64,000 nt of DNA. Origin: Bacillota bacterium. Lineage in GTDB: Bacteria; Bacillota; Limnochordia; DUMW01. Positions 2,045 through 60,079 of this stretch are shown in pieces. The position numbers and the translations under genes are program-made. Location: contig DUMW01000009.1 in assembly GCA_012839765.1 (NCBI GenBank), positions 29,434 through 93,433 on the forward strand. The letters run 5' to 3'. Within the stretch, counting starts at the first letter, position 1, and the number at the start of each line of letters is the position of its first letter. The notes beneath the pieces were generated by a model. The model was not told the origin of the DNA. It ran no database searches and saw only the letters and a program-made list of their open reading frames with translations.

Positions 2045-3310
2045 TTGTTTCAATATTCTGTTTTAGACAATGGCATTCGGGTGGTTACAGAGACAATACC
2101 CCATGTATATTCGGTTTCCATTGGTTTTTGGTTTCGGGTAGGTTCGGCCTATGAACCGGCGGAGTACAGCGGTGCTTTCCATTTCATCGAGCACATGTTG
2201 TTCAAGGGTACGGCTAATCGTTCCGCCCGGGAGATCGCGGAGCTTATTGATTCCACTGGAGGAGAAGTAAATGCCTTCACCGGTCGGGAGTATACCTGTT
2301 ATTATGCCCGGGTTTTCCGGAAACACTTGCCCATTGCTATTGACCTGTTGACCGACATGCTCCTCAATCCCTGCTTTGATGAAGGTGAGTTGCAGAAGGA
2401 GCGGGGAGTCATTATCCAGGAGATCAAGATGTATGAGGATACGCCCGAAGAACTGGTCCACGAATTATTGGTGAACTATCTGTTCGAAGGCCATGGCCTT
2501 GGCCAAAGCATCCTTGGCACGGAAGAATCGGTGCGGGCCTTCGATTCCGACCGGTTACAGAGATTTAAGGAAGACAACTATACTCCCGCAAACCTAGTGG
2601 TGGGGGTGGCGGGTAACGTGGAACACGGGGAAGTGGTGCAGCTTCTGGAAGAGTACTTCTCCCAGTGGACGACAAAGCACCAGAAGACAGAGCTGACAAA
2701 GCCGGGGTATCACCACTTCATGGCCTATAAAGAAAAGGACCTAGAACAGCTGCATCTTTGTCTGGCGGTGCCGGGTTTGACCCGGTATTCCTCCCTGCGC
2801 TATCCAATGTATGTTCTGGATACGGTACTGGGCGGTGGTAACAGTTCCCGCTTATTCCAAAAGCTCAGAGAAGAGCAGGGTTTAGCTTACTCCACCTATT
2901 CCTTCCACAGTAGCTACGCACACGCGGGTTTGTTCGGTGTGTACGCAGGCATTGATGCCGATTCCCTAGAACAGACTTTGGAATTAATCCAGGAAGAGAT
3001 CCACCAACTGATGAAGCACCCCATCTCTCAACTAGAACTGGATCGGGCCAAGGAACAGCTCAAGGGCAACCTGATGCTGGGGCTTGAGAGCACCGCGGCG
3101 CGGATGGGCCGCCTCAGCAAGTCCATTTTATTCGACAAGCCAGTGTCTACGCCGCTACAGATTTGTCAAAGGATCGATGACGTGACTATTGAGGATGTTT
3201 ACCAAGTGAGCAGCCTTCTGTTTAGTCGCCCCGTCAGTGTGGTGGCGGTGGGGAGGAACGCCGCAGGGATTAGGGAGTTTTTTGATCAAGCCGCGATTAT
3301 CGCCTGCTAG
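2045..3310 (+). CDS. mlpA: M16-family zinc peptidase (insulinase-like), MlpA/YmxG orthologue
   Basis: HFIEH (HxxEH inverted zinc-binding motif) and strong similarity in pattern to B. subtilis MlpA (…NAFTGREYTCYYARV…). TTG start at 2045 has a GGGGGAG RBS 9 nt upstream. Position between ylxY-like and ymxH-like genes. Confidence 0.8.
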   Translation: MFQYSVLDNGIRVVTETIPHVYSVSIGFWFRVGSAYEPAEYSGAFHFIEHMLFKGTANRSAREIAELIDSTGGEVNAFTGREYTCYYARVFRKHLPIAIDLLTDMLLNPCFDEGELQKERGVIIQEIKMYEDTPEELVHELLVNYLFEGHGLGQSILGTEESVRAFDSDRLQRFKEDNYTPANLVVGVAGNVEHGEVVQLLEEYFSQWTTKHQKTELTKPGYHHFMAYKEKDLEQLHLCLAVPGLTRYSSLRYPMYVLDTVLGGGNSSRLFQKLREEQGLAYSTYSFHSSYAHAGLFGVYAGIDADSLEQTLELIQEEIHQLMKHPISQLELDRAKEQLKGNLMLGLESTAARMGRLSKSILFDKPVSTPLQICQRIDDVTIEDVYQVSSLLFSRPVSVVAVGRNAAGIREFFDQAAIIAC

Positions 3311-39413: not shown

Positions 39414-39689
39414 TTGTTATACAGTGAGATCGCCGGGAAAGAACTGATCGATATCGCAGAAGGGCGCCGGCTGGGTGTAGTTTATGCCACGGATCTGGTG
39501 ATCGATACGGAGACGCTGCAGGTGGTGGCGATCATCCTTCCCACCCGGCGCCGCCGGTTCCTCCTTTTTGGCAGCGATGAATACGTCCTGATTCCCTGGG
39601 AAGGGATCCTGAAAATTGGGGTGGACGTGATCGTGGTGGATATGCGCTGTAGTTCCCAGTATGTGGAACCGGAGACCCCCGGCCTGTAA
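39414..39689 (+). CDS. ymxH: YlmC/YmxH-family sporulation protein (PRC-barrel)
   Basis: 91 aa; the sequence is typical of the YmxH/YlmC family (…LIDIAEGRRLGVV…DLVID…). TTG start with a GGGAGG RBS. In B. subtilis ymxH lies between mlpA and spoVFA. Confidence 0.7.
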   Translation: MLYSEIAGKELIDIAEGRRLGVVYATDLVIDTETLQVVAIILPTRRRRFLLFGSDEYVLIPWEGILKIGVDVIVVDMRCSSQYVEPETPGL

Positions 39690-40257: not shown

Positions 40258-40374
40258 AACCCAAGGCCCTGCAGAGATTGCAGGGCCTTCCTCTTGTCTG
40301 CAGGGAGGATTTTGCCTTAAGGTGTCAAAATAATGGCAGTGATAGATAGTTTTGGGAAAGTGGGAGGGGAGACC

Positions 40375-42114
40375 ATGGTCCACCAACGGATACCCCGGCC
40401 GGAACACCCGCGTCCGCAGTTGTTTCGGGAACGCTGGCAAAACTTGAACGGCTGGTGGGAGTTTGAGATTGATCATGGGCGAAGCGGCAAAGACAGGAAG
40501 TTCTATGAACGGAAGGAGCTTTCCGGGAAGATCTTGGTACCCTTCTGCCCCGAAAGCAAGTTGTCTGGGGTGGAGTATCGGGATTTTGTGGCGGCGGTGT
40601 GGTATCGCAGGGAGTTCGAGCTTCCCCCAGGATGGGGTGAAGGTAACCGGGTACTATTACACTTTGAAGCCGTTGATTACTACACCGAGGTGTGGATCAA
40701 CGGCGTATCTGTCGGTAGCCATCGGGGTGGCTTTACTCCTTTTACCTTCGATATTACCGATCATTTGGTCGCGGGCACGAATGTGCTTACGGTCTGTGCT
40801 GAGGATGACGTCCGCAGTGGTTTACAACCGGTGGGCAAGCAGAGTACCCTTTATCATTCCCATGCAACGAAGTATACCAGAACTACAGGTGTTTGGCAGA
40901 CCGTGTGGTTAGAGTGTGTAGCCGAGGGTTATGTGGATTCCCTCCGGTACTTCCCCGATCCGGCCAACGGTCAGCTGCACATTGCGGCAAAACTGGCCGG
41001 GAATGTGGTGGGCTGCGACCTGCAATTGACGGCTTCCTACGAAGGAAAGCCCATGGGAAGTGTTACCGCCCGGGTGGTGGGGCCCGATGTACGGGTCACC
41101 TTGCCCCTGGATGAAGTGCACCTGTGGGAACCAGGAAAACCTCGCCTCTATGACCTGGCCATTGTGTTGAGTAAGGATTCCTATCCCTTGGATGAGGTCC
41201 AAAGCTATTTCGGTCTGCGGACCATTACACTAGATGATCGGGCGATCCTGATCAATGGACAGCCGGTCTTTCAACGGTTGGTCCTGGACCAAGGTTATTA
41301 TCCCGACGGAGTCTATACTGCACCTACCGACGAGGCTTTGAGAAAGGATATCGAGCTTTCCATGGAGCTTGGCTTCAATGGAGCGCGGCTACACCAGAAG
41401 GTCTTCGAACGGCGGTTCCTCTATTGGGCCGATAAACTGGGATACTTGGTATGGGGTGAGTACCCTAATTGGGGATTGGATATTACCACCGCTAAAGGTT
41501 TGGAAGTCTTCTTGCCCCAATGGTTGGAGGCGGTGGAACGGGACTTCAATTGCCCGGCGTTGGTCGTGTGGTGTCCCTTCAACGAGACCTGGGACTGGTA
41601 TGGGAACCGACAAAACAATGAGGTGCTGCGGAACATCTACCTGGTGACAAAGCAGCTAGATCCCACCCGGCCTGTAATTGATACCTCTGGTAATTACCAT
41701 GTGGTCACCGATATTTTCGACATCCATGACTACGAACAGGATGTGGAGGTGTTTGCGAAGCGTTACCAGAAGGTGGCGGAGACTGGCGAGGTCTATGTGA
41801 CCTTCCCCGATCGCCAGAAATATGGCGGTCAACCGTATTTCGTCAGTGAATATGGCGGGATTTGGTGGAGTGATACAGGTGATGAGGGTTGGGGCTATGG
41901 TCGGCGGCCGAAGGACAAGGAGGAATTCCTGGCCCGATATAAGGGATTGACCGAGGCCTTGCTCAATAACCCTCTAGTGGCTGGTTTTTGTTATACACAA
42001 TTGTATGATGTGGAGCAGGAGATGAATGGGCTGTATACCTATGGGCGGGAGCCGAAGTTTGACAAGGAGGTCATTCGGCAGATCAATCAGCAACGGGCGG
42101 CCATTGAGGAATAG
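40375..42114 (+). CDS. GH2-family glycoside hydrolase (beta-galactosidase/beta-mannosidase/beta-glucuronidase-like)
   Basis: Sugar-binding jelly-roll region (VLLHFEAVDYYTEVWINGVSVGSHRGGFTPFTFDIT) and TIM-barrel region (LGFNGARLHQK…NETW) typical of GH2. ATG 40375 follows a GGGAGGGGAG RBS. Confidence 0.7.
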   Translation: MVHQRIPRPEHPRPQLFRERWQNLNGWWEFEIDHGRSGKDRKFYERKELSGKILVPFCPESKLSGVEYRDFVAAVWYRREFELPPGWGEGNRVLLHFEAVDYYTEVWINGVSVGSHRGGFTPFTFDITDHLVAGTNVLTVCAEDDVRSGLQPVGKQSTLYHSHATKYTRTTGVWQTVWLECVAEGYVDSLRYFPDPANGQLHIAAKLAGNVVGCDLQLTASYEGKPMGSVTARVVGPDVRVTLPLDEVHLWEPGKPRLYDLAIVLSKDSYPLDEVQSYFGLRTITLDDRAILINGQPVFQRLVLDQGYYPDGVYTAPTDEALRKDIELSMELGFNGARLHQKVFERRFLYWADKLGYLVWGEYPNWGLDITTAKGLEVFLPQWLEAVERDFNCPALVVWCPFNETWDWYGNRQNNEVLRNIYLVTKQLDPTRPVIDTSGNYHVVTDIFDIHDYEQDVEVFAKRYQKVAETGEVYVTFPDRQKYGGQPYFVSEYGGIWWSDTGDEGWGYGRRPKDKEEFLARYKGLTEALLNNPLVAGFCYTQLYDVEQEMNGLYTYGREPKFDKEVIRQINQQRAAIEE

Positions 42115-42637
42115 GAAAAGGGCTTAATAGAGGATTTCTCGGCATTGGCCGTAAGTTTGAACGAGGGGATCCCTCGGAGTTCCTTTGGCGATCACTAGAC
42201 AATAAAAGGGCGCGAGGGATCCCCGCTGCAGATGAGAGAGGACTTTCTACGGTTTCTTACGCTAAGGCCATGAAGGTGTCTTCTCGATCGTTCAACAACG
42301 GTGGTAACTAATAAGGCATACCCTAGCACCCTGTTATGTTCATGAACCGGTAGCAGTGTTTTGCAAAGGTTTCCCATATCTGCAAGAGCTACTTCTAGAC
42401 GCCCTTGGAGAAACGGTAATGCACAGACGATCACAACCATGCCCAAGCGGGGAGGGGATCAGGCCTAGGTCAAAGGGGTGACTAGAGGAGACGGGAAGGA
42501 AGACAAAAAGGAAGACGGAAACTGATTTTTTTGGGAGGTGGGCAGCTTTTCGGAGAAAAATGTCTCTCCGGTAAGAGGGCATTGGCTTAGTTTTTCGGTT
42601 TGTTCTGATACAGACATCCAGGAAAGAAGGGACCTTA

Positions 42638-43451
42638 GTGGAGACGCGTTTGTCCATGTGGACCGATATGTACGCAGACTTGGACCCCGAAGAGGCGCTG
42701 GAACGGCTATTGGACAGCAGTTTTCCTGTGTTTGAGTTTGGTTGTACGCACTTGGGAAAATGGGTTAATAGTGGAAGGAATCCGGCCCGATTAGAAAGGA
42801 TCGCACACAAGGTAACTAGTGCCGGAAGAAGATTTCAAACTTCATGCGCCAATCATGAATGGGTTACCACCCGAGGAGCTTTTGCCGCACATGTTGACGG
42901 CCGTCGACGCAGCTGCGATTCTGGGTGCCAGATGGGTGGTCGTGCATCCAGTGACCCTACCCCAATGGGCAGGGCGGGATGCTCTGGATGAGGAGTGTGT
43001 TCGGACCAACCAGCAGTACTTCACAGAATTGGTGGACGCAGCCACTGCCCGTGGGGTGGGGATTGCTGTGGAGAATATGTTTAAAGGCCGATTTGGAATG
43101 AGGTGAAGCGAGCTTTTGGTCTTGCTGCAGCAGTTTCCTGAAGAGGCCTTTGGGGTCTGCTGGGATACCAGCCACGGTGAGCTCAGTAGTCCGAACCAGG
43201 CGGAAGAAATGGCGCTCGTGAAATCCCGCATTGTGGCCACCCATATCTCCGACAATCTTGGGCAGGCTGACGACCATCTTTATCCATATCGCGGGCAAGT
43301 AGACTGGGCGGCTGTTGTCGGTGTTCTCCGGGAGCAGCCTTGGGTGTTGAATTTTGAAGTGCCCGGAAAAATGTCCCGTTGTCCTTTGGAATTGCGGGGG
43401 GCCTTGGTGGAATATGGTTTTGCCGTTGGAAAGCATCTGCTGAATTTGTGA
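42638..43451 (+). pseudogene. Sugar-phosphate isomerase/epimerase (xylose-isomerase-like TIM barrel), disrupted by one frameshift (~42820-42840) and an in-frame TGA (43104-43106)
   Basis: The family motifs are spread over three ORF pieces: …HLGKWV… (42638 frame); …GARWVVVHP…GIAVEN… (42819 frame, ends …GRFGMR TGA); and …GVCWDTSHGE…VATHISDN… (43116 frame). Confidence 0.55.
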
Positions 43452-43753
43452 TATGTCATAGGGAAGCATTCCACAACCATCCGGGAAGATGGTTAGAGAA
43501 ACGCCTTCCTGCTGCTGGTGGGATGGTATGGAGACCGTCCATTGCGGATGGTCCTCCTAGGATCCCATGACCATGCCTGGCTAGAATGAACCTCTGGGGT
43601 ATAGCTGATCAATCCAGTAGATAGCAGATACTCGTTCAATGCACCCTTGACTGAACGGTGTAGTCTAGTATAGCAATGCCGGATAACGTTTTCGGTGTTT
43701 CCTGGTGTACCTTGAATGGTGCCGATCTTTACTGCTATCGAAGGAGTGACGCT

Positions 43754-44065
43754 ATGGACCCCAGAAAAACACTACTTCCCGGATTGGTTGTCTTACTAGT
43801 TATCCTAGGTATTGCCTTCATATCGTTGCGGATAGACACAAGGAGGCAAGAACCCGAACAGAGCGAAGATGCGAGCGACGTATTAACCTATACGATGGTT
43901 GGAGCTCTGAGTGGCTATTGTGAAATGTTGATTAATCGTTTCTCAAAAGAGTTTGGTGTGAAGACGGAGTATGTACGGCTTTTATATCGGTATTGCATGA
44001 TCCTTAGAGGGCGCATTACATTGGGTTTTTCGTTGCCTTTGACTTTATCCGTAATGCATGTATAA
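43754..44065 (+). CDS. Hypothetical small membrane-anchored protein
   Basis: ATG 43754 follows an AAGGAG RBS. N-terminal TM helix LLPGLVVLLVILGIAFISL. No recognisable domain. Confidence 0.3.
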   Translation: MDPRKTLLPGLVVLLVILGIAFISLRIDTRRQEPEQSEDASDVLTYTMVGALSGYCEMLINRFSKEFGVKTEYVRLLYRYCMILRGRITLGFSLPLTLSVMHV

Positions 44066-44114
44066 TATAGCTATAAATCGAGGTATAGAGGGTAAAGATA
44101 AAAGCCCTTGATGA

Positions 44115-44340
44115 GTTCAGAGATAGAGGCGCGGGACTCAAGAGTACCCTCGGGTAGGATGGGATTTCATCGAAGCACCGGGGGGAAAGGGGGAACCGCC
44201 GAAGTGTCTAACTTAAATCCAAGTTAGATGCTGGGCTTAAGGTGAATAACCTTAGGACTGCCATTGTTTCAATGGAGAGCTATCTCGCCAGGACTGTGTA
44301 TGCGGTTGGTGAGATGTGCCAACCGCTTTTTGTTGTACCT
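44115..44340 (+). promoter_or_regulatory. Lysine riboswitch (L-box) with terminator-type expression platform, upstream of the dapB-dpaAB-asd-aspartokinase-dapA gene string
   Basis: AGAGGCGCGGGACUCAAGAGUA…AUGGGAUU…GGAAAGGGGGAACCGCCGAAG…UGGAGAGCUAUCUC matches the conserved L-box core of the B. subtilis lysC leader (AGAGGUGCGAACUUCAAGAGUA…GAAAGGGGAGCGUCGCCGAAG…GGAGGGCUAUCU). A GCGGTTGG/CCAACCGC hairpin plus TTTTTGTTGT terminator lies at 44302-44340. Confidence 0.75.
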
Positions 44341-44359
44341 CGATATGGGAGGAGATACT

Positions 44360-45157
44360 TTGTCGAAGATCAGGGTGGCAGTGAGTGGAGCTGCCGGAAA
44401 GATGGGACAGGAAGTGGTCCGGGCCCTCACCCGGGAGCCGGACATGGAGTTGGTGGCCGCCTTTGATCCCAAGGCCGCAGGAAAGGACGCGGGGGAAGTG
44501 GCCGGGATAGGTGCCTTGGGCGTAACCATTGCGGTGGATCCCGCGGCGGGCCTGGGACAAGCCCAAGTACTGGTGGACTTTACGGAACCTGCGGTGGTGA
44601 AGAAGAATATCCACACCGCCTTGGACCAAGGGGTGCGACCGGTGGTGGGCACCACGGGTATGAGTATGGAGGATTTGGCGGATGTCCGCCGGTGGGTGAA
44701 AAACGCCGGTCTTGGTGCCATCATTGCCCCCAACTTTGCCATTGGAGCCATCCTCCTGATGCAGTTTGCCAAGGTCGCCAGCCGTTATTTTCCCCATGCG
44801 GAGATTATCGAGTTGCACCATAACCAGAAGAAGGACGCCCCTTCCGGTACCGCGATCAAGACAGCGCAGATGATGGCCGCGGCCCGGGGCCAAGTGGCTA
44901 ATGAAGATCCCAGTGAAGAGAAGCTGTGTGGTGTCCGGGGCGGTCAGCTGGAGGGGATCAATATTCACAGTGTGCGGCTGCCGGGCTTGATTGCCCATCA
45001 GGAAGTGATCTTCGGTGGCAGCGGACAGATCCTGACCCTGCGCCATGATTCCACCAGCCGGGAATCCTTTATGCCGGGGGTGATGCTGGCAGTGCGAAAG
45101 GTCTTGGAGTTGGATGAACTGGTCTATGGGCTTGAGAACTTGCTCTTTGCCGATTAA
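44360..45157 (+). CDS. dapB: 4-hydroxy-tetrahydrodipicolinate reductase
   Basis: IRVAVSGAAGKMG Rossmann N-terminus and DapB C-terminal domain (…ELHHNQKKDAPSGTA…). TTG 44360 follows a GGGAGGAG RBS immediately after the riboswitch terminator (alternative ATG 44345). Confidence 0.8.
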   Translation: MSKIRVAVSGAAGKMGQEVVRALTREPDMELVAAFDPKAAGKDAGEVAGIGALGVTIAVDPAAGLGQAQVLVDFTEPAVVKKNIHTALDQGVRPVVGTTGMSMEDLADVRRWVKNAGLGAIIAPNFAIGAILLMQFAKVASRYFPHAEIIELHHNQKKDAPSGTAIKTAQMMAAARGQVANEDPSEEKLCGVRGGQLEGINIHSVRLPGLIAHQEVIFGGSGQILTLRHDSTSRESFMPGVMLAVRKVLELDELVYGLENLLFAD

Positions 45158-45226
45158 CATGGGTAATCGGGCCCGCATATATTACTAGTAAGCACGGAGG
45201 ACCAGGCTTTGAAAGGGGATGTGTGC

Positions 45227-46108
45227 ATGGGTATTGCTTTAGATGGCATTCCAGTAGCCGTCCTAGGTGGAGATGCCCGAGAGTACATCGTGGTCCAGTG
45301 GCTGTTGAAAGCCGGTGCCAACGTCTTACTAGTAGGCTATGAGCACGCCCAGTTTCCCCAGTGTCCACATGTTTCGCTTAAAGAGGCGATCGCTTCCAGC
45401 CGGGTTTTTGTGGCACCCATGAGTAATACCGATCAACGGGGACGGATCAAGGCAGTACCCGATGGATCTGTGATCATGCTAGACGCTGAAGGATTGTCCG
45501 GAGTGTTATCCGGTTCTTTACTCATTATTGGCTATGCTCAGCCCGTGGTCAGAAGCGCCGCCCAACAGCTTTGCATCCATCTGGTGGAACTGGCCGAGGA
45601 TGATGCGGTGGCCATCCTCAATTCCATACCCACCGCGGAGGGGGCCGTGGCTCTGGCCATGGAGAAATTGCCCATTACCATTCATGGTTGTAAAGCTGTT
45701 GTGTTAGGCTTTGGCCGTTGTGCCCAGACTTTGGCCCGCGTGTTACATTCCCTAGGGGCACGGACCACTGTGGTGGCCAGGAACACCGGGCAGCAGGCGC
45801 GGGCCCAGGAAATGGGCGTTGTGGCCTGCGGTTTCGAAGGACTGTACGATGCTGTCATCGATGCTGATGTGGTTTTCAATACAGTGCCGGCCTTGGTGTT
45901 GACCGAAAGTGTGCTAACCCGAATGAATCCAGACACCTTGGTGATCGATATCGCCTCCAGTCCCGGTGGCACGGATTTCAAGGCTGCAGAACGGCTGGGC
46001 ATTGAAGCGATCTTGGCCCTGGGGTTGCCGGGTAAAGTGGCGCCCAAGACCGCCGGGGAGATTATGGCCCAGGGCGTGATGCGGGCAATTAGGGACTACC
46101 TCAGCTAA
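45227..46108 (+). CDS. dpaA: Dipicolinate synthase subunit A (SpoVFA)
   Basis: …IPVAVLGGDAREYIVVQWL… matches the SpoVFA N-terminus (B. subtilis …IAVIGGDARQLEII…). Adjacent to dpaB. An alternative TTG start lies at 45209. Confidence 0.8.
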   Translation: MGIALDGIPVAVLGGDAREYIVVQWLLKAGANVLLVGYEHAQFPQCPHVSLKEAIASSRVFVAPMSNTDQRGRIKAVPDGSVIMLDAEGLSGVLSGSLLIIGYAQPVVRSAAQQLCIHLVELAEDDAVAILNSIPTAEGAVALAMEKLPITIHGCKAVVLGFGRCAQTLARVLHSLGARTTVVARNTGQQARAQEMGVVACGFEGLYDAVIDADVVFNTVPALVLTESVLTRMNPDTLVIDIASSPGGTDFKAAERLGIEAILALGLPGKVAPKTAGEIMAQGVMRAIRDYLS

Positions 46109-46148
46109 CCTGGATGCTCCGTGCACTTATATCCGGGGGTGCACGTAG

Positions 46149-46730
46149 ATGGATTTTACCGGTGTACGAATTGGTTTTGCTTTGACCGGTTCATTCTGTA
46201 CCATAGACGCCGTTCTCAAGGAGCTTCGTCGGTTGATTGAGTTGAATGCAGATGTTGTTCCCATTGTGTCGCCGTCGGTGAAGACTTTGGATACCCGGTT
46301 CGGCACAGCCAACTCCCTGCTGGAAACCCTAACCTCATTGACCGGAAAGCCACCCATTGATAGTATTATACAGGCCGAACCCATCGGGCCGAAGGGGTTA
46401 CTGGACATTGTGATCGTGGCGCCCTGCACCGGCAACACCTTGGCGAAGTTTGCCAACGGGATCACCGATACCCCGGTGCTGATGGCCATGAAATCCCAGT
46501 TGCGGAATCGTCGGCCGGTGGTGATCTCCATCTCCACCAATGATGGGTTGGGCAACAACGCCGTGAACCTGGGGCGGGCGCTGAATATGCCGAATGTGTA
46601 TTTTGTCCCCTTCCGGCAGGATGACCCCGAGGGGAAGCCCCGTTCCCTCGTGGCGGAGGTCAGTCTTATCCCGGCCACCTTGGAAGCGGCATTACAAGGA
46701 AAACAGTTGCAACCGGTGATCATCAGTTGA
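46149..46730 (+). CDS. dpaB: Dipicolinate synthase subunit B (SpoVFB, flavoprotein-like)
   Basis: …RIGFALTGSFCT… matches the SpoVFB N-terminus (B. subtilis …RIGFGLTGSHCT…). ~193 aa. Immediately downstream of dpaA. Confidence 0.8.
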   Translation: MDFTGVRIGFALTGSFCTIDAVLKELRRLIELNADVVPIVSPSVKTLDTRFGTANSLLETLTSLTGKPPIDSIIQAEPIGPKGLLDIVIVAPCTGNTLAKFANGITDTPVLMAMKSQLRNRRPVVISISTNDGLGNNAVNLGRALNMPNVYFVPFRQDDPEGKPRSLVAEVSLIPATLEAALQGKQLQPVIIS

Positions 46731-46782
46731 ATACAGGAATATCCGCAGCGAGTGTGTAATTAACGATTTAAGGAGGGCTATC

Positions 46783-47817
46783 ATGCGAAAAGTACGGGCA
46801 GCGATTCTCGGAGCGACAGGGGCCGTAGGGCAGGAACTTCTTGGTATCCTGAAAGAACGGGATTTCCCCTTGGATAGCTTAAAGCTTCTCGCCTCTCCTC
46901 GGTCCGCCGGGTTGAAGATTCCCTTTGGCGATGAAGAACTTACGGTGGAAGCGGTGAGTCCCGAGGCCTTTGAAAATGTAGATTTGGCCTTTTTCTGCGC
47001 CGGAGGTAGCGTTAGCAAGCAATATGCTCCGGAGGCGCTTAGTCGGGGGGCGGTTGTTATCGACAACACCAGTGCCTTCCGTTTAGACGAAGGTGTGCCT
47101 TTGGTGGTACCTGAGGTGAACGCCACTGATATTACTCCGGAGACGAAGCTGATTGCCAATCCCAACTGCTCTACGATCCTGATGGTGATGGCATTGGCAC
47201 CACTGCACCGGTACTATGGTATCGAGCGGGTGGTGGTGTCGACCTACCAGGCGGTTTCCGGGGTAGGGGCCAAGGCTATGGATGATCTATGCAAACAGGT
47301 GCGGGCTTGGGCCGCGGGTGAAGAAGTGGTCTCTAGTTGCTTCCCCTTTGTGGCGGCGGAGCGCCATTACCAGATGCATTTTAACCTGATCCCGCAGATC
47401 GACGTCTTTGATGAATTGGGCTACACCAAGGAAGAGTGGAAAATGGTGCGGGAGACCCAGAAGATCCTCCATGCGCCCGACATGCGGATTACCGCCACCA
47501 CTGTCCGGGTGCCTGTGCTCAGGAGCCACTCCGAGTCTGTGAACGTCGAGTTTAAGCAAGAGGTTGATCTGGGGAAGGTGCGGGAACTATTGGCGGGCTT
47601 CCCCGGTGTGGTGGTGTGGGACGATCCGGAGAACTTCAAGTATCCCATGCCTTTGGATGTGACGGGTAAGGATGAGGTTTACGTAGGTCGGATCCGGGTG
47701 GATAACTCCCATCCACGGGCCATCAACCTGTGGTTGGTGGGGGACCAGATCCGGAAAGGTGCGGCGTTAAACGCGGTGCAGGTTGGGGAGTATATGGTGA
47801 GTAACGGCTTGATCTGA
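46783..47817 (+). CDS. asd: Aspartate-semialdehyde dehydrogenase
   Basis: MRKVRAAILGATGAVGQELL N-terminus. 344 aa with the Asd pattern (…NPNCSTI…). Confidence 0.85.
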   Translation: MRKVRAAILGATGAVGQELLGILKERDFPLDSLKLLASPRSAGLKIPFGDEELTVEAVSPEAFENVDLAFFCAGGSVSKQYAPEALSRGAVVIDNTSAFRLDEGVPLVVPEVNATDITPETKLIANPNCSTILMVMALAPLHRYYGIERVVVSTYQAVSGVGAKAMDDLCKQVRAWAAGEEVVSSCFPFVAAERHYQMHFNLIPQIDVFDELGYTKEEWKMVRETQKILHAPDMRITATTVRVPVLRSHSESVNVEFKQEVDLGKVRELLAGFPGVVVWDDPENFKYPMPLDVTGKDEVYVGRIRVDNSHPRAINLWLVGDQIRKGAALNAVQVGEYMVSNGLI

Positions 47818-47839
47818 TTTTTCTGGGGAGAGAGGCAAC

Positions 47840-49081
47840 ATGGCCATTGTCGTCCTGAAATTTGGTGGCACTTCCCTGGCTTCGGAAGCGATGCGGGAGC
47901 AGGCCGTGGAGCGGGTCAAGGAAGCCAAAGCCGCTGGCGATCAAGTGGTGGTTGTGGTTTCTGCCATGGGTCGGCGGGGATCGGCCTATGCCACGGACAC
48001 CCTCCTGGACTTGATGTCAGGGATTACCCAGCGACCTGATAGGCGGGTCCTGGATTTACTGCTCTCCTGTGGGGAACTTATTTCGGCCAGCCTCATGGCC
48101 CAGCTGCTCACCGAGCGGGGGCTGGAAGCAGTCCCCTTGACCGGTGGTCAAGCGGGGATTATCACGGACAATGAGTTTGGCAATGCCCGCATCGTCGAGG
48201 TGCGGCCTAAAGGTATCTTGGAGGAACTGAAGAAGGGCCGAGTTGTGGTGGTGGCTGGTTTTCAGGGGGTGACCCCCAACCAGGAGATCACCACCCTCGG
48301 GCGGGGTGGCAGTGATACCACCGCCGCAGCCCTGGGCGTGGCCTTGGGGGCTAAGGCGATCTACATCTTCACCGATGTGGACGGGATCTTGACCGCGGAT
48401 CCGCGGATCGTCCCCGATGCCCAGTTGGTTCCTAGCACCACTTACCGTGAGGTGGCGGAACTGGCACAGCTGGGGGCCCGGGTAATCCATCCCCGGGCGG
48501 TGGAGATTGCTGCGGCGGGGCGGATCCCCTTGATCATCCGAGCCACCGACAAAGCCGGTGCCGGTACAGTAATCTGGGATGGTCCGGGGGATGGCCCCGT
48601 GGAGATCCGGGCCGATCGTCCTGTGGGCGCGGTGACCCAGATTACAGGGCTAGCCCTAGTCAGCGTGATTCCCGCGCATGATCAAGAGATCAGCATGGAG
48701 CAGGCTCGACAACTATTCCAGAATGTGGCGGAATTAGGTGTTAGTGTGGACCTGATCTTCCTGTCGCCGACTCTGGTGGGATTCTGTGTCCGACAGGAAG
48801 AAGCTGAAGCGGTGGAGAACAGATTAAGGGAATTGAGTTTTAACGTTAAAGTGAAGGCAGGATATGCCAAGGTGTCCTGTGTGGGTGCAGGGATGCGGGG
48901 TGTGCCTGGTGTAATGGCCAGAATTGTCGAGGCCTTGCATGAGACCGATGTGCGGGTGTATCACACCAGCGATTCCCATGCCAGCATCTCCTGCTTGGTG
49001 GAAGAGAAGGATTACATGAAAGCGGTTCGGGCTCTACATGACAAGTTTCACCTAGGTAGCACGAATGTGCGAGGGAGTTGA
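47840..49081 (+). CDS. dapG: Aspartokinase (monofunctional, with ACT domains; DapG/LysC type)
   Basis: MAIVVLKFGGTSL kinase N-terminus. 413 aa. Sits in the asd-aspartokinase-dapA arrangement, as dapG does in B. subtilis. Confidence 0.8.
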   Translation: MAIVVLKFGGTSLASEAMREQAVERVKEAKAAGDQVVVVVSAMGRRGSAYATDTLLDLMSGITQRPDRRVLDLLLSCGELISASLMAQLLTERGLEAVPLTGGQAGIITDNEFGNARIVEVRPKGILEELKKGRVVVVAGFQGVTPNQEITTLGRGGSDTTAAALGVALGAKAIYIFTDVDGILTADPRIVPDAQLVPSTTYREVAELAQLGARVIHPRAVEIAAAGRIPLIIRATDKAGAGTVIWDGPGDGPVEIRADRPVGAVTQITGLALVSVIPAHDQEISMEQARQLFQNVAELGVSVDLIFLSPTLVGFCVRQEEAEAVENRLRELSFNVKVKAGYAKVSCVGAGMRGVPGVMARIVEALHETDVRVYHTSDSHASISCLVEEKDYMKAVRALHDKFHLGSTNVRGS

Positions 49082-49974
49082 GTAGTTTGCAAGGCTTTGG
49101 TCATTTACTGACTGCGATGGTCACTCCATTTAAGGAAGGAGGCGCAGTAGACTACGATAAAGCCGCGGAGCTGGCTTCGCGGCTTCTGGATTGCGGTTCA
49201 GATGGGATCGTTGTCTCCGGGACCACGGGTGAATCCCCAACCCTCACCTTTGATGAAAAGGTGAGCCTGTTCAAAGCAGTGGTGGAAGCCGTGGGCGGTC
49301 GCGGTGTGGTCCTGGCCGGTACTGGTTCCTACTGCACGCAGGAGACCATTGAGCTTACAAAGACGGCGGAAAAAGTGGGCATCGATGGGATCATGTTGGT
49401 GACCCCCTATTACAACAAACCGCCGCAGTCAGCCCTGTATAGTCATTTCAAAATGATTGCTGCGGAAACGGAATTGCCGATTATGCTATATAATGTCCCC
49501 AGCCGCACTTCGGTGAACCTGTTGCCGGAGACAGTGGCGAGGTTGGCGGAGATCGAAAACATTGTAGCGATCAAGGAGGCCTCGGGCAATTTAGGGCAGG
49601 TGGCAAGGATTTACCAAATGACCCCCGACGACTTCTACATATACAGCGGCGATGACAATCTGACGTTGCCGGTGTTGAGTGTAGGAGGCGTCGGGGTAGT
49701 CAGTGTGGCGGCCCATGTGGTGGGTCATAGTATTCGCGAGATGATCGATCTTTTCCTGGCGGGCAAAGTCAAGGAAGCCGCTGAAGTGAACAGAAAGCTG
49801 GTGCCCCTTTTCGAGGCGATGTTCGTTACCACCAATCCTATACCGGTGAAGACCGCGGTAAATCTTCTTGGCGGTGACGTGGGCTCGTTGCGCCCACCTT
49901 TACAGGAGCCCTCCGCTGAGCAGGTGACTGTGATCAAGGAAGCGTTGAAGAAGGTTGGTTTGATCGACTTCTAG
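49078..49974 (+). CDS. dapA: 4-hydroxy-tetrahydrodipicolinate synthase
   Basis: …LTAMVTPF… and GTTGES motifs. Start codon uncertain (TTG 49078 or 49087). The stop of the aspartokinase gene overlaps this start. Confidence 0.8.
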   Translation: MSSLQGFGHLLTAMVTPFKEGGAVDYDKAAELASRLLDCGSDGIVVSGTTGESPTLTFDEKVSLFKAVVEAVGGRGVVLAGTGSYCTQETIELTKTAEKVGIDGIMLVTPYYNKPPQSALYSHFKMIAAETELPIMLYNVPSRTSVNLLPETVARLAEIENIVAIKEASGNLGQVARIYQMTPDDFYIYSGDDNLTLPVLSVGGVGVVSVAAHVVGHSIREMIDLFLAGKVKEAAEVNRKLVPLFEAMFVTTNPIPVKTAVNLLGGDVGSLRPPLQEPSAEQVTVIKEALKKVGLIDF

Positions 49975-49975
49975 A

Positions 49976-50003
49976 GGCGGGCATTTCCCGCCTCTTGGGC
50001 TTC
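49976..50003 (+). terminator. Hairpin terminator after dapA
   Basis: GAGGCGGG-cattt-CCCGCCTC stem followed by a TTGGGCTTCC tract (weak U-tract). Confidence 0.4.
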
Positions 50004-50542
50004 CCAAGACTAGCAAAGCCTTTAGCGAATTGTCCAGGTTTTTCAGGCCTCTTCTATTCTACTGCTGGTGGTCCTCTACAATCTCCTCGGTTTAGCCCGG
50101 AAGTGTTTCGGGCCCCTTGGAAGGCATAAACTGCCATGGGGTAAATCACGATATTGTAACGGCAAAGTGTCCAAGCCCTAGATGTGGGGGAAACATTTTC
50201 TTAGGGTGTTGGTGGAATAGCGCGGTTTTGTTGATGAGGATTGATCCGCCTGGGTCTATCCAGTGGTAATATATTGTCTTCTGGCCGGAAATGGGAAGGA
50301 CAGGTCCCAGGCTGCCAATTTCCTTGGAAATAATTAACCTGCCAGTTTCCCTTGTCAGTCTGATGTTGATCGAGTATAATTGCAGTAAGATCCTCGGACG
50401 GCTAGCTTTCTTTTGTTTTATTTGGACAACAGCCAGGTCAAGTAACGCCCGCCTGTTCTTGACCTACAAGTTGCAGCCCAGTAAAAATCAGGTGCGGTGC
50501 GTCCAAAAACGGATTAGCAGAAATATGTGGAGGTGTGCTTAT

Positions 50543-52216
50543 ATGGCGAGGGGAGATCGTGCGCTCTCAATTATACCCCTCGGCGGAGTCGGCGAGATTG
50601 GTAAAAATATGTTCGTTTACGAATACGATGAGGATCTGATCTTGGTAGACGCCGGGGTAATGTTTCCCGATGACGATATGCTAGGTATTGATCTGGTTAT
50701 TCCGGATATTTCTTACCTAAAGGAGAATCGAGACAGGTTACGGGGTGTCTTCTTGACCCACGGTCACGAGGACCATATTGGGGCGGTGCCCTATGTACTT
50801 AGGGAGATCCCTGAGGTGCCCATCTATGGGACTAGGTTGACCTTGGGTCTTCTGGAAAGCAAATTGATGGAATTTGGCATGGCGGAGGACGCCACCCTGA
50901 TCTGCGTCCAGGCAGGGGATCAGGTACAGGTGGGTTCGTGGTTTACGGTGGAGTTTATCCATGTGAACCACAGCATTCCCGATGTGGTGGCTATTGCTGT
51001 TACCACACCGGAAGGTGTGGTAATTCATTGTAGTGACTTCAAGTTTGACCAGACGCCTATTGATGGCAAGGTGGCTGATTATCACCGGTTAGCGGAACTG
51101 GGTAAAGAAGGTGTTTTGGCGGTACTTTCCGATAGTACCAACGCGGAGCGGCCGGGGTATACCCTCTCGGAGCGGGCCCTGACGGAGACCTTCAATGACA
51201 TCTTTCGCAAGGCCGAAGGCCGGGTGCTGGTGGCGACCTTTGCCTCCAACGTGCACCGGATTCAGCAGGTGATCGATGCCTCGATCAAGTTCGACCGCAA
51301 GATTGGCCTGGTGGGTCGTTCCATGGTCAATGTGGTTACCATTGCAAAGAACTTGGGTTATCTGAATCTACCCGAGGAGATCCTGATTGACATCGGTGAA
51401 GTGGATGATTATCCACCCCAGCAGCTGACCATCATCACCACCGGAAGCCAAGGGGAGCCGATGTCCGCCCTGACCAGGATGGCGATGAGTAACCATCGAC
51501 AGTTGGAGATCTACCCGGGGGATACGGTGGTGGTTTCCGCTAACCCCATCCCTGGGAATGAGAAGATGATCGGCCGGACCATTGACTATCTCTTCCGGCA
51601 AGGCGCTGAAGTGATCTACCATTCGGTGTCCGGTGTGCACGTCTCCGGGCACGCTAGCCAGGAAGAATTGAAGCTGTTGCTCAATTTGTGCCGTCCGAAG
51701 TATTTCTTCCCCATCCACGGTGAACACCGGATGCTCTTCACCCATGCTCGGTTAGGGATGAGTGTGGGGATTCCCCCGGATAACATCGTGATCATGGATA
51801 AGGGCGAGGTCTGGCAGATCAAGGATGGTGTGCTGCAGAAGGCCGGACAGGTCAAATGCGATCCCGTTTATGTGGACGGGTTGGGCGTAGGCGATGTGGG
51901 GAACATCGTGCTGCGGGACCGCCAGCAGTTGTCCCAGGATGGTATCCTGGTGGTGGTGGTCACCATCGACCGGCAGACGGGTACCGTGGTGGCGGGCCCG
52001 GATATTATTACCCGTGGCTTTGTCTACGTCCGGGAGTCGGAGAAGTTCTTGGAAGAGATCCAGCAGCGGGCTACCGACATTATGCAACGGTGCACCCTCA
52101 ACGGCATTTTGGAGTGGGGCCCCATCAAGGAAGAGATTCGTTCGGATCTGTCCCAGTACCTGTACGGACGCATCAAGCGGCGCCCCATGATTCTGCCCAT
52201 TATCATGGAAGTGTAG
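50543..52216 (+). CDS. rnj: Ribonuclease J (metallo-beta-lactamase/beta-CASP RNase)
   Basis: …LSIIPLGGVGEIGKNMFVYEYDEDLILVDAG… and HGHEDH motifs. ATG 50543 follows a GGAGG RBS. The longer six-frame ORF from 50291 lacks homology and an RBS. Confidence 0.85.
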   Translation: MARGDRALSIIPLGGVGEIGKNMFVYEYDEDLILVDAGVMFPDDDMLGIDLVIPDISYLKENRDRLRGVFLTHGHEDHIGAVPYVLREIPEVPIYGTRLTLGLLESKLMEFGMAEDATLICVQAGDQVQVGSWFTVEFIHVNHSIPDVVAIAVTTPEGVVIHCSDFKFDQTPIDGKVADYHRLAELGKEGVLAVLSDSTNAERPGYTLSERALTETFNDIFRKAEGRVLVATFASNVHRIQQVIDASIKFDRKIGLVGRSMVNVVTIAKNLGYLNLPEEILIDIGEVDDYPPQQLTIITTGSQGEPMSALTRMAMSNHRQLEIYPGDTVVVSANPIPGNEKMIGRTIDYLFRQGAEVIYHSVSGVHVSGHASQEELKLLLNLCRPKYFFPIHGEHRMLFTHARLGMSVGIPPDNIVIMDKGEVWQIKDGVLQKAGQVKCDPVYVDGLGVGDVGNIVLRDRQQLSQDGILVVVVTIDRQTGTVVAGPDIITRGFVYVRESEKFLEEIQQRATDIMQRCTLNGILEWGPIKEEIRSDLSQYLYGRIKRRPMILPIIMEV

Positions 52217-57866: not shown

Positions 57867-58895
57867 ATGATGCGGGCTTTGGTGAAGACCCGATCCGGAC
57901 CGGGTCTGGAGTTAATAGACAAACCGATTCCTGAACCAGGAGTTGGTGAAGTCTTAGTGAAAGTTAAATATGCATCCATCTGCGGGACGGATCTCCACAT
58001 TTACACCTGGGACCAATGGGCCCAGAACAGAATCAAACCACCGGTGACCATTGGCCACGAATTAAGTGGCCAAGTGGTAAAACTGGGGCAGGGAGTGGAA
58101 AACGTTAAAGAAGGCGACTGGGTATCGGCCGAGGGACATCTTTGGTGCGGACAGTGTTACCAGTGTCGGACCGGGAAGAAGCATATCTGCCGGCATGCCC
58201 AGATCATTGGCGTGGACCGCGACGGCTGTTTTGCCGATTACGTGGTATTGCCCGCACAGAATCTATGGAAACTGCACCCGGACTTAGATCCCAGCTTGGC
58301 CAGCGTCTTCGATCCCTTTGGCAACGCGGTGCACTCCACCATGTGCTGGAACTTAGGGGCAAGGAGTGTCCTGGTGGCGGGCTGCGGCCCCATCGGGGTG
58401 CTTTGTGTGATGTTGGCCAAATGGTTTGGGGCTAGTCCGGTCATTGCTACGGAGACCAATGCCTACCGTCGACAATTGGCAGAAAAACTTGGCGCCGACG
58501 TTGTCCTTAATCCCCTGGAAGTGGACGTGGTGGAGAAAGTGATGGAGCTTACTTCGGGAACAGGGGTGGATCTTTTCCTCGAGATGTCTGGAAACGAGTC
58601 CGCGATCCGCTCAGGGATCGCCGCGGTGACCCCCGGTGGCGGAGTCTCTTTACTGGGGATCCCGGGAAAAGAGATCCAGCTGAACCTTTCTGAGATCATT
58701 TTCAAGCAGCTGACGCTTTTGGGGATCAACGGTCGTCGGGTCTTTGAAAACTGGTACGCCATGGAGCGTTTGGTACTGGCTGGCTTTGACTTGGCCTCGG
58801 TGGTTACCCATCGGTTGTCCTTCTCCCAATGGGAGCAAGGGATGGAACTGATGGCCCAAGGGGTCTGTGGGAAAGTAACCTTAGAATTAGACTAG
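57867..58895 (+). CDS. tdh: L-threonine 3-dehydrogenase (zinc-dependent MDR family)
   Basis: MMRALVKT…ICGTDLHIY…GHE…CGQCYQCR motifs. Followed directly by kbl. AAGGAGGA RBS. Confidence 0.8.
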
Positions 58896-58906
58896 GGGGG
58901 AGAAAT

Positions 58907-60079
58907 ATGCCACTGGGATTCTTGCAGGAAGAACTGGCGAAACTGGAGGAAAGCAAGTTATACAACCACATCCGGGTGATTGAGGGAGCCCAGGGACCAT
59001 GGGTGCAGATCAAGGGACGGAGGATGTTGAACCTTTGTTCCAACAACTATCTGGGTTTGGCCAATCATCCCGCCTTGAAGGAAGCGGCCATCAAGGCCAT
59101 CGAAGAATACGGGGTGGGCCCCGGGGCAGTGCGATCCATTGCAGGGACAAATTCCCTCCATACAGAGCTGGAAGAGGCCCTGGCCCGCTTCAAAAGGGCG
59201 GAGGCTGTCCTTTCCTTCCAATCGGGGTTCAACGCCAACTTGGCGGTGATTCCGGCCCTGGTGGGCAAGGAGGATGTGATCCTGAGTGATGAATTGAATC
59301 ACGCCAGCATCATTGACGGATGTCGGTTAAGCCGGGCTACCATCAAGGTATATCCCCACCGGGATATGGAAGCCTTGGAGAAACTACTCCAGGAGTATCA
59401 AGGACGGCGGGTACTGGTGGTTACCGATGGAGTTTTCAGTATGGATGGTGACCTGGCTCCCTTGCCGGAGATTGTTCGTTTAGCGAAGAAATACGGGGCG
59501 ATCACCATGGTGGACGATGCCCACGGCGAAGGGGTGCTGGGGAGCCACGGCCGGGGAATCGTAGACCACTTTGACCTCCACGGAGAAGTGGATGTGGAGG
59601 TAGGGACCTTATCCAAGGCCTTTGGCGTTGTTGGAGGTTTCGTGGCCGGAAGCAGGCTTCTGGTGGACTATCTCAAGCAACGGGCGCGGCCCTTCCTCTT
59701 CTCTTCGGCCGTAACCAGCGCTGATGTGGCGGCGTGCCTTGCTGCGGTGAAACTACTGGAAAGCAGCGATGAACTGGTGAAAAAGCTTTGGGATAATGCC
59801 CGGTACTTCCAGACAAAGATCCAAGAGGCGGGCTTTGTCCTTGGGGACACCGAAACGCCCATTTCGCCGGTGATGCTGGGAGAGTCCGGCGTCGCCCAGG
59901 CCCTTAGTAAGGGGCTCGTTGACGAGGAAGGGGTCTTTGCCCAGGCCATTGTCTATCCTACGGTACCCCAGGGCAAGGCGCGGATCCGGGTCATGGTCTC
60001 CGCAGCCCACAGTAAGGAAGACTTGGACTACGGGATCGCGGCCTTTGTCCGGCAAGGAGAAAAATTGGGGATTATCTAG
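58907..60079 (+). CDS. kbl: Glycine C-acetyltransferase (2-amino-3-ketobutyrate CoA ligase)
   Basis: PLP-dependent class-II aminotransferase pattern (…[10 protein letters not shown]…, …SFQSGFNAN…, LSKAFG lysine region). tdh-kbl pairing. Confidence 0.8.

Follow-up and report, generated by a model that had tools for sequence, protein, structure and literature searches.

Does a lysine riboswitch that heads a string of lysine and dipicolinate genes place dipicolinate synthase under lysine control? The question is raised by a locus on contig DUMW01000009.1 (assembly GCA_012839765.1) of a Bacillota bacterium, of which a stretch of 64,000 nt was analyzed in full (the window). The original prediction, made from the letters alone, described a single L-box with a terminator platform directly before dapB, followed by dpaA, dpaB, asd, an aspartokinase gene, and dapA. 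On this basis it proposed that the dipicolinate synthase genes might answer to lysine through the upstream promoter.

The first part of this proposal concerns the leader of dapB, in which the following elements were located.

44039-44066, + strand: sigma-A-type promoter of the riboswitch leader, TTGACT-16-TATAAT (11/12 match)
44116-44290, + strand: lysine riboswitch aptamer (L-box, RF00168; 126.1 bits, E 2.3e-33)
44279-44319, + strand: antiterminator (the isolated element folds at -19.1 kcal/mol)
44302-44336, + strand: intrinsic terminator, GCGGUUGGUG-agaug-UGCCAACCGC and then the T-run UUUUUGUUGU (-14.4 kcal/mol)

An RF00168 scan bore out the predicted riboswitch with a full-length match, which is also the only Rfam match at the gathering threshold across the 64 kb. 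It spans model positions 1 to 182 of 182, with no truncation, and its score lies far above the gathering score of 30. The P1 strands of the aptamer fall at 44120-44126 and 44280-44286. In the Rfam alignment, the core blocks AGAGGnGC, GAGUA, GAAAGGG, GCCGAAG, CUGG, ACUG, and GGAGnGCUA are all present with high posterior probability, and the conserved core blocks are invariant across four compared copies. The aptamer ends 69 nt before the dapB start, which puts it in the 5' leader of a lysine biosynthesis gene.

Comparative data agree with this assignment. A covariance model derived from four aptamers linked to dapB recovered six copies from the window and 80 related loci; when the window aptamer alone served as an nhmmer query against the 80 loci, it recovered only 3 of the 5 L-boxes that the covariance model found there. 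In the six-copy alignment, which was itself fitted to the model, 50 pairs in seven helix segments were paired in 98% of cells, and 33/50 pairs showed compensatory changes on both sides, a number reached by 0/500 shuffles. Slid registers of the same alignment were only 36 to 46% paired. Loops L2 and L3 were complementary over 5 to 7 bp in 6/6 copies, with different bases each time, although shuffled loops matched that length in 7 to 83% of trials. The L2-L3 complementarity in the window is GGAUUU with AAAUCC, in loops too short for the shuffle control to discriminate.

The terminator platform was found as originally described, with a 10-bp hairpin (44302-44326; 6 GC pairs), the U-run TTTTTGTTGT, and a competing antiterminator. 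The latter joins the P1 3' strand and its flank, GCUAUCUCGCCA (44279-44290), to UGGUGAGAUGUGC (44307-44319), which comprises the 5' arm and loop of the terminator. When P1 was enforced in constrained folding of 44116-44340, the terminator formed; when the P1 5' strand was blocked, the antiterminator formed and the terminator was lost. As modeled, the expression platform is decided by two mutually exclusive folds, P1 with the terminator or the antiterminator. The leader element, judged by its sequence, is a canonical OFF riboswitch that is predicted to bind lysine and to act by transcription termination.

The promoter of the leader is one of three + strand sites in 9.1 kb that match the sigma-A consensus at 10/12 or better, against 0.47 expected. 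These sites lie before the L-box, in the dapB-dpaA spacer, and before the RNase J gene. The -10 box of the leader promoter contains the stop codon of an upstream 103-aa open reading frame (ORF; 43754-44065), which has no Pfam or NCBIfam match.

A view of the L-box as a degenerating remnant without regulatory function is hardly credible. Such a reading could point to its absence from 66/71 related dapB-dpaA clusters, including all Limnochordia relatives, and to an insertion of about 4 kb, foreign in appearance, immediately 5' of it. It conflicts with the full-length match, in which every core position is aligned, and with the strong compensatory covariation across dapB-linked copies. We rejected it because none of the four elements (promoter, aptamer, antiterminator, and terminator) is disrupted.

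The second part of the question is how far transcription that escapes this terminator may run. The downstream string comprises six genes and a hairpin at its end.

44360-45157, + strand: dapB, 4-hydroxy-tetrahydrodipicolinate reductase (TIGR00036, 287 bits; cut-off 122)
45209-46108, + strand: dpaA, dipicolinate synthase subunit A (NF006162, 328 bits; cut-off 261)
46149-46730, + strand: dpaB, dipicolinate synthase subunit B (NF006161, 293 bits; cut-off 156)
46783-47817, + strand: asd, aspartate-semialdehyde dehydrogenase (NF011456, 462 bits)
47840-49081, + strand: ask, monofunctional aspartate kinase (best model NF006068/PRK08210, 501 bits; cut-off 474)
49078-49974, + strand: dapA, 4-hydroxy-tetrahydrodipicolinate synthase (TIGR00674, 370 bits)
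49973-49995, + strand: 9-bp GC-rich hairpin, AGAGGCGGG-cattt-CCCGCCTCT, overlapping the dapA stop codon and lacking a U-run

The six identities are those of the best NCBIfam models, each at or above its curated cut-off. The dapB start codon is the TTG at 44360, not 44362, and is preceded by the ribosome-binding site GGGAGGAG at 44347-44354; dpaA likewise starts with TTG, with a GGAGGA ribosome-binding site at 45197-45202. Aspartokinase is encoded by the fifth gene of the string, and the RNase J gene follows dapA. From dapB to dapA, the intergenic gaps measure 51, 40, 52, 22, and -4 nt, the last being a 4-nt overlap of the kinase gene and dapA, in agreement with the gaps of 22 to 52 nt and the single overlap first reported. 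The claim that no terminators intervene also held: no terminator-like site occurs within any spacer of the six-gene string, and matches to the terminator consensus inside coding sequence are weak and at chance level (9 versus 8.0 expected). The hairpin at 49973-49995 is the probable 3' end of the string, and a terminator-like hairpin is present in 49/61 related dapA-rnj spacers. Because the six co-directional genes are uninterrupted and their spacers hold no terminators, read-through from the riboswitch-gated promoter is physically possible.

If read-through were the whole story, the six genes would form a single operon on one lysine-gated promoter, and dipicolinate synthase would need low lysine even during sporulation. 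The short spacers, the overlap, and the lack of spacer terminators are in keeping with such an operon, as is the absence of a strong sigma-A promoter before asd. However, the 51-nt spacer between dapB and dpaA (TAACATGGGTAATCGGGCCCGCATATATTACTAGTAAGCACGGAGGACCAGGCTTTG) contains promoter motifs of its own.

45157-45184, + strand: sigma-K-type (mother-cell) promoter motif AC-N17-CATATATTA, found by motif search
45154-45183, + strand: sigma-A-like site TTAACA-18-TATATT (10/12), overlapping the sigma-K-type motif

The sigma-K-type motif consists of AC at 45157-45158, 17 nt, and CATATATTA at 45176-45184, with the GGAGGA ribosome-binding site and TTG start of dpaA downstream. Searched as AC-N16-18-CATAnnnTA, it has a single match in 43400-50400, namely, this spacer. 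A relaxed form, AC-N15-18-CATAnnnT, occurs in 71/71 related dapB-dpaA spacers. Elsewhere in these strings it was found in none of the dpaA-dpaB, asd-ask, or ask-dapA spacers, in one dpaB-asd spacer, and in four dapA-rnj spacers, with a background in the same loci of 5.7e-5 per nt, or 0.011 expected per spacer. The motif was also present upstream of dpaA in 7/9 evaluable loci with no adjacent dapB, including those of Alicyclobacillus and Tumebacillus. Since it stays with dpaA where dapB is not adjacent, the motif belongs to dpaA and not to dapB.

Sigma-K promoters have AC at -35 and CATATAAT at -10, and the -10 element is common to sigma-E and sigma-K (Saujet et al. 2013, PMC3789822). The sigma assignment therefore rests on the two-base -35 core. 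The motif in the window fits the sigma-K consensus, taken as AC at -35, a spacer of 16 to 17 nt, and CATAnnnT(A) at -10. In C. difficile, dpaA-dpaB is sigma-K dependent (Saujet et al. 2013, PMC3789822). Across relatives, the aligned motif has the consensus GCACC-N15-tCATATAnTG. The -35 flank in the window, TTAACA, diverges from the family GCACC toward TTGACA, and only the core AC is kept. A sigma-A score of 10/12 in this spacer is reached by only 4/71 relatives. On these matches, the spacer may hold a dual-specificity promoter, and the sigma-A-like site means that the downstream genes might have vegetative expression independent of the riboswitch.

The conserved motif before dpaA implies that dpaAB is a separate sporulation-type unit, with a promoter that lies 3' of the riboswitch and bypasses it. 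This promoter, with its predicted sigma-K dependence, should be blind to lysine. The contrast drawn earlier with the separate sigma-K unit formed by spoVF in B. subtilis is not supported, as a sigma-K-type motif is found here and in 71/71 relatives. Of the proposed lysine control of dpaAB, the possibility of read-through stands, while exclusive control is not supported, given the promoter motif 3' of the riboswitch.

A single lysine-gated operon is therefore very unlikely. Sole dependence of all six genes on the gated promoter is at odds with the internal sigma-K-type motif, kept in every related spacer, and with the 10/12 sigma-A-like site. In addition, dpaAB is sigma-K dependent in both model spore formers (C. 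difficile, PMC3789822; B. subtilis, PMC9024752), and a shutoff of DPA synthesis under plentiful lysine would compromise spore formation.

The opposite arrangement, in which the gated transcript serves dapB alone, is also unlikely, though less so. Here the transcript would be ended or processed (by Rho or an RNase) before dpaA. Expression of the five downstream genes would then come entirely from the spacer, where sigma-K would use the promoter in the mother cell and sigma-A possibly during growth. Metabolic logic favors this reading: the lysine/DAP branch has DapB as its first dedicated enzyme, in competition with DpaAB for HTPA (PMC9024752). The spacer site is one of the three high-scoring sigma-A matches noted above. 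Moreover, a terminator-like hairpin separates dapB from dpaA in 13/71 relatives, mostly Syntrophomonadaceae-type loci with long spacers, which indicates that the two units are separable in evolution. Against this, neither the 51-nt spacer of the window nor that of any of the five other L-box loci contains a hairpin or U-run.

The promoter content before asd bears on the same alternative. B. subtilis has a sigma-A promoter at this position. No convincing sigma-A promoter precedes asd in the window, which again speaks against a transcript confined to dapB, and none was found there in four of the five L-box relatives. Sigma-A-like matches of at least 9/12 before asd occur in 21/69 other relatives; TTGACA-17-TATGCT, for example, is found in L013, L014, L020, L030, and L032. 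Subdivision of the cluster varies by lineage, and ask or asd is missing from the string in several loci.

We regard a nested arrangement as the probable one, that is, an L-box-gated transcript that reads through the string together with an internal sigma-K promoter, both read-through and sigma-K dependence being predicted from sequence. In this model, the sigma-A-type promoter at 44039-44066 would start the leader, which folds into the five-helix lysine aptamer. With lysine bound, P1 would be closed, the terminator hairpin and U-run would form, and RNA polymerase would halt before dapB. Without lysine, the P1 3' strand would instead pair with the terminator 5' arm (44279-44319), and transcription would enter dapB. 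The vegetative transcript would then probably run on through dpaA-dpaB-asd-ask-dapA to the hairpin after dapA. The basis for read-through past dapB is that the spacer holds no hairpin. An argument against unrestrained read-through is that vegetative cells short of lysine would, by making DpaAB, draw HTPA off the lysine pathway. This vegetative route, which is plausible, is the only one by which lysine could reach dpaAB.

In the mother cell, the conserved sigma-K-type promoter would drive dpaAB-asd-ask-dapA, without dapB, whatever the lysine level. HTPA would thus be made and routed to dipicolinate and would not be drained by DapB, the logic of the B. subtilis spoVF-asd-dapG-dapA unit. In that organism, sigma-K drives dpaAB and dapA and not dapB (Schwardmann et al. 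2022, PMC9024752), so HTPA is kept from DapB in the mother cell (PMC9024752). Repression of dapB is also reported to raise DPA yield (Schwardmann et al. 2022, PMC9024752).

Comparison with related loci places this arrangement in context. The order dapB-dpaA-dpaB-asd-ask-dapA-rnj is kept in about 70/80 related loci, from Limnochordia, Desulfotomaculia, Syntrophomonadia, Moorellia, Desulfitobacteriia, and other lineages. The string is thus ancestral (Clostridia type) and no peculiarity of this genome. Upstream there is usually a PRC-barrel (YmxH-like) gene, in some loci separated from dapB by a YflT-like gene. The species-level genome set contains no close relative of the DpaA encoded in the window; its best match is 58% identical, and the nearest sources are Limnochordia and other deep Bacillota metagenome-assembled genomes (MAGs). 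The identical contig was found again in several metagenomes, and these copies (L081 to L084) show no strain variation in the leader or the dapB-dpaA spacer.

An L-box directly 5' of dapB was found in 5/80 related loci, namely, L031, L046 (Moorellaceae AZ2), L058 (Peptococcaceae BICA1-8), L066, and L077 (Moorella thermoacetica DSM 21394). The layout is therefore not peculiar to this genome. All five loci (5/5) have a sigma-A-like promoter, an aptamer, a terminator with U-run, a ribosome-binding site, and dapB, and in four of them the L-box lies in the ymxH-dapB spacer. M. thermoacetica and the four MAG loci show the same succession as the window: ymxH, sigma-A-like promoter, L-box, terminator, dapB, sigma-K-type motif, and dpaA-dpaB-asd-ask-dapA. 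An Rfam scan of 14 related loci showed no L-box in the closest relatives (Limnochordia and Desulfofundulus); the element is thus not a clade-wide trait.

The window differs from the five L-box loci in several respects. Their -35 flank before dpaA is GCACC, in contrast to the TTAACA of the window. Between ymxH/yflT and the L-box, the window contains a GH2 gene, a broken AP_endonuc_2 ORF, and the 103-aa ORF. A CCUCAUC(U/C)C motif is common to the five loci and lies close to the 5' side of P1, 30 to 10 nt upstream of the aptamer; at least in L046 and L077, it is complementary to GAGAUGAG between aptamer and terminator. The pairing may extend P1 or act as an anti-antiterminator. 5' of P1, where the other loci carry CCUCAUCUC as a leader motif, the window has no CCUCAUC(U/C)C motif.

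Among characterized systems, the closest parallel for the leader is the lysC L-box of B. subtilis, which belongs to the same RF00168 family and shares the OFF logic, the terminator and antiterminator competing for the P1 3' strand, and an upstream sigma-A-type promoter. Unlike that element, the L-box of the window precedes dapB and not the aspartokinase gene. For the gene string, the parallel is B. subtilis spoVFA-spoVFB-asd-dapG-dapA-rnjB, which has the same order (dpaA-dpaB-asd-aspartokinase-dapA-RNase J, then a ClpP-like gene and ylzJ); the aspartate kinase of the window occupies the dapG position. As at spoVF, where a sigma-K promoter reportedly precedes spoVFA (Chen et al. 1993; Daniel & Errington 1993; cited via PMC6878958 and PMC9024752), a sigma-K-type motif lies directly before dpaA and a ymxH-like PRC-barrel gene lies upstream. 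In contrast to spoVF, the window has dapB between ymxH and dpaA, as do most Clostridia-type relatives, and an L-box before dapB. B. subtilis dapB is located elsewhere in the genome and is not known to have an L-box.

Other Firmicutes L-box operons include lysA-asd-dapA-dapB in C. difficile, asd-dapA-dapB in Caldicellulosiruptor, and lysC-asd-dapA-dapB-dapD in Staphylococcus (Mukherjee et al. 2017, PMC5584792). The window resembles these operons in that asd, dapA, dapB, and aspartokinase genes follow a single lysine riboswitch in one multigene string, although here the string is split by an internal sporulation-type promoter. None of the L-box operons tabulated in that work begins with dapB or contains dpaAB, and dipicolinate, spoVF, and dpaA are not mentioned (PMC5584792). 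In the searchable literature, we found no description of the L-box-dapB-dpaAB layout and no paper that ties L-box, dapB, and dipicolinate together; the literature searched also contained no relevant Moorella transcript map. The L-box-dapB-dpaA layout is probably already cataloged in riboswitch databases.

About 36 kb of sugar-utilization genes (3473-39401) separate an M16 peptidase gene (2045-3310) from the YmxH-like PRC-barrel gene (39414-39689); the two are neighbors in the usual mlpA-ymxH-dpaA synteny of B. subtilis. Encoded there are a LacI regulator, two solute-binding proteins, GH116, and GH9, together with several large ORFs that lack a Pfam match. The segment has the appearance of a large block inserted among sporulation genes whose neighborhood is conserved. 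A second segment, 40333-44065, lies between the YflT-like gene and the L-box and holds the GH2 glycosidase gene, the AP_endonuc_2 ORF, and the 103-aa ORF; relatives have dapB immediately after ymxH or yflT. The AP_endonuc_2 ORF (42891-43451) has an internal stop and is intact in metagenome copy L081 and split in L082 and L083.

Downstream, the RNase J ORF (50291-52216, 641 aa) matches its family only from residue 93, and the versions selected by gene callers are 557 or 617 aa long. Inside the long ORF, at 50352-50380, there is a strong match to a sigma-A-like promoter, TTGTCA-17-TATAAT (11/12). From the late family match and this internal promoter, the RNase J start is probably near 50544, which gives a dapA-rnj spacer of about 570 nt. 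Further downstream, a class I/II aminotransferase-fold gene (58829-60079) was considered as DapL and rejected; it encodes a BioF/Kbl-family acyltransferase (TIGR01825, 578 bits) unrelated to the lysine pathway.

A further reading concerns purpose. The L-box on dapB might serve, beyond lysine feedback, as a branch-point valve for spore chemistry, which we consider doubtful. If it does, a rise in lysine (e.g., from protein turnover) would shut the sole promoter feeding dapB, HTPA would go to dipicolinate instead of lysine/DAP, and DPA synthesis would be boosted at high lysine, the opposite of what was originally suggested for lysine and dipicolinate. Moorella, some Peptococcaceae-like MAGs, and this organism would then have recruited a metabolite sensor into the control of sporulation flux.

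Taken together, the locus is an ordinary lysine riboswitch at a less common position, before dapB, in an ancestral cluster that retains a separate, conserved mother-cell promoter for the dipicolinate genes. The class, mechanism, and association with dap genes of this riboswitch are long established; the element itself is routine, and the L-box-dapB-dpaA layout opens no long-standing question. The sigma-K-type promoter found between dapB and dpaA in every genome examined does provide a testable statement, namely, that DapB is kept out of the mother-cell DPA program. A minority of lineages, including the cultivable M. thermoacetica, add an L-box before dapB. The result would be a nested unit, with overlapping transcripts at a branch point of metabolism that answer to a metabolite sensor and to a developmental sigma factor.
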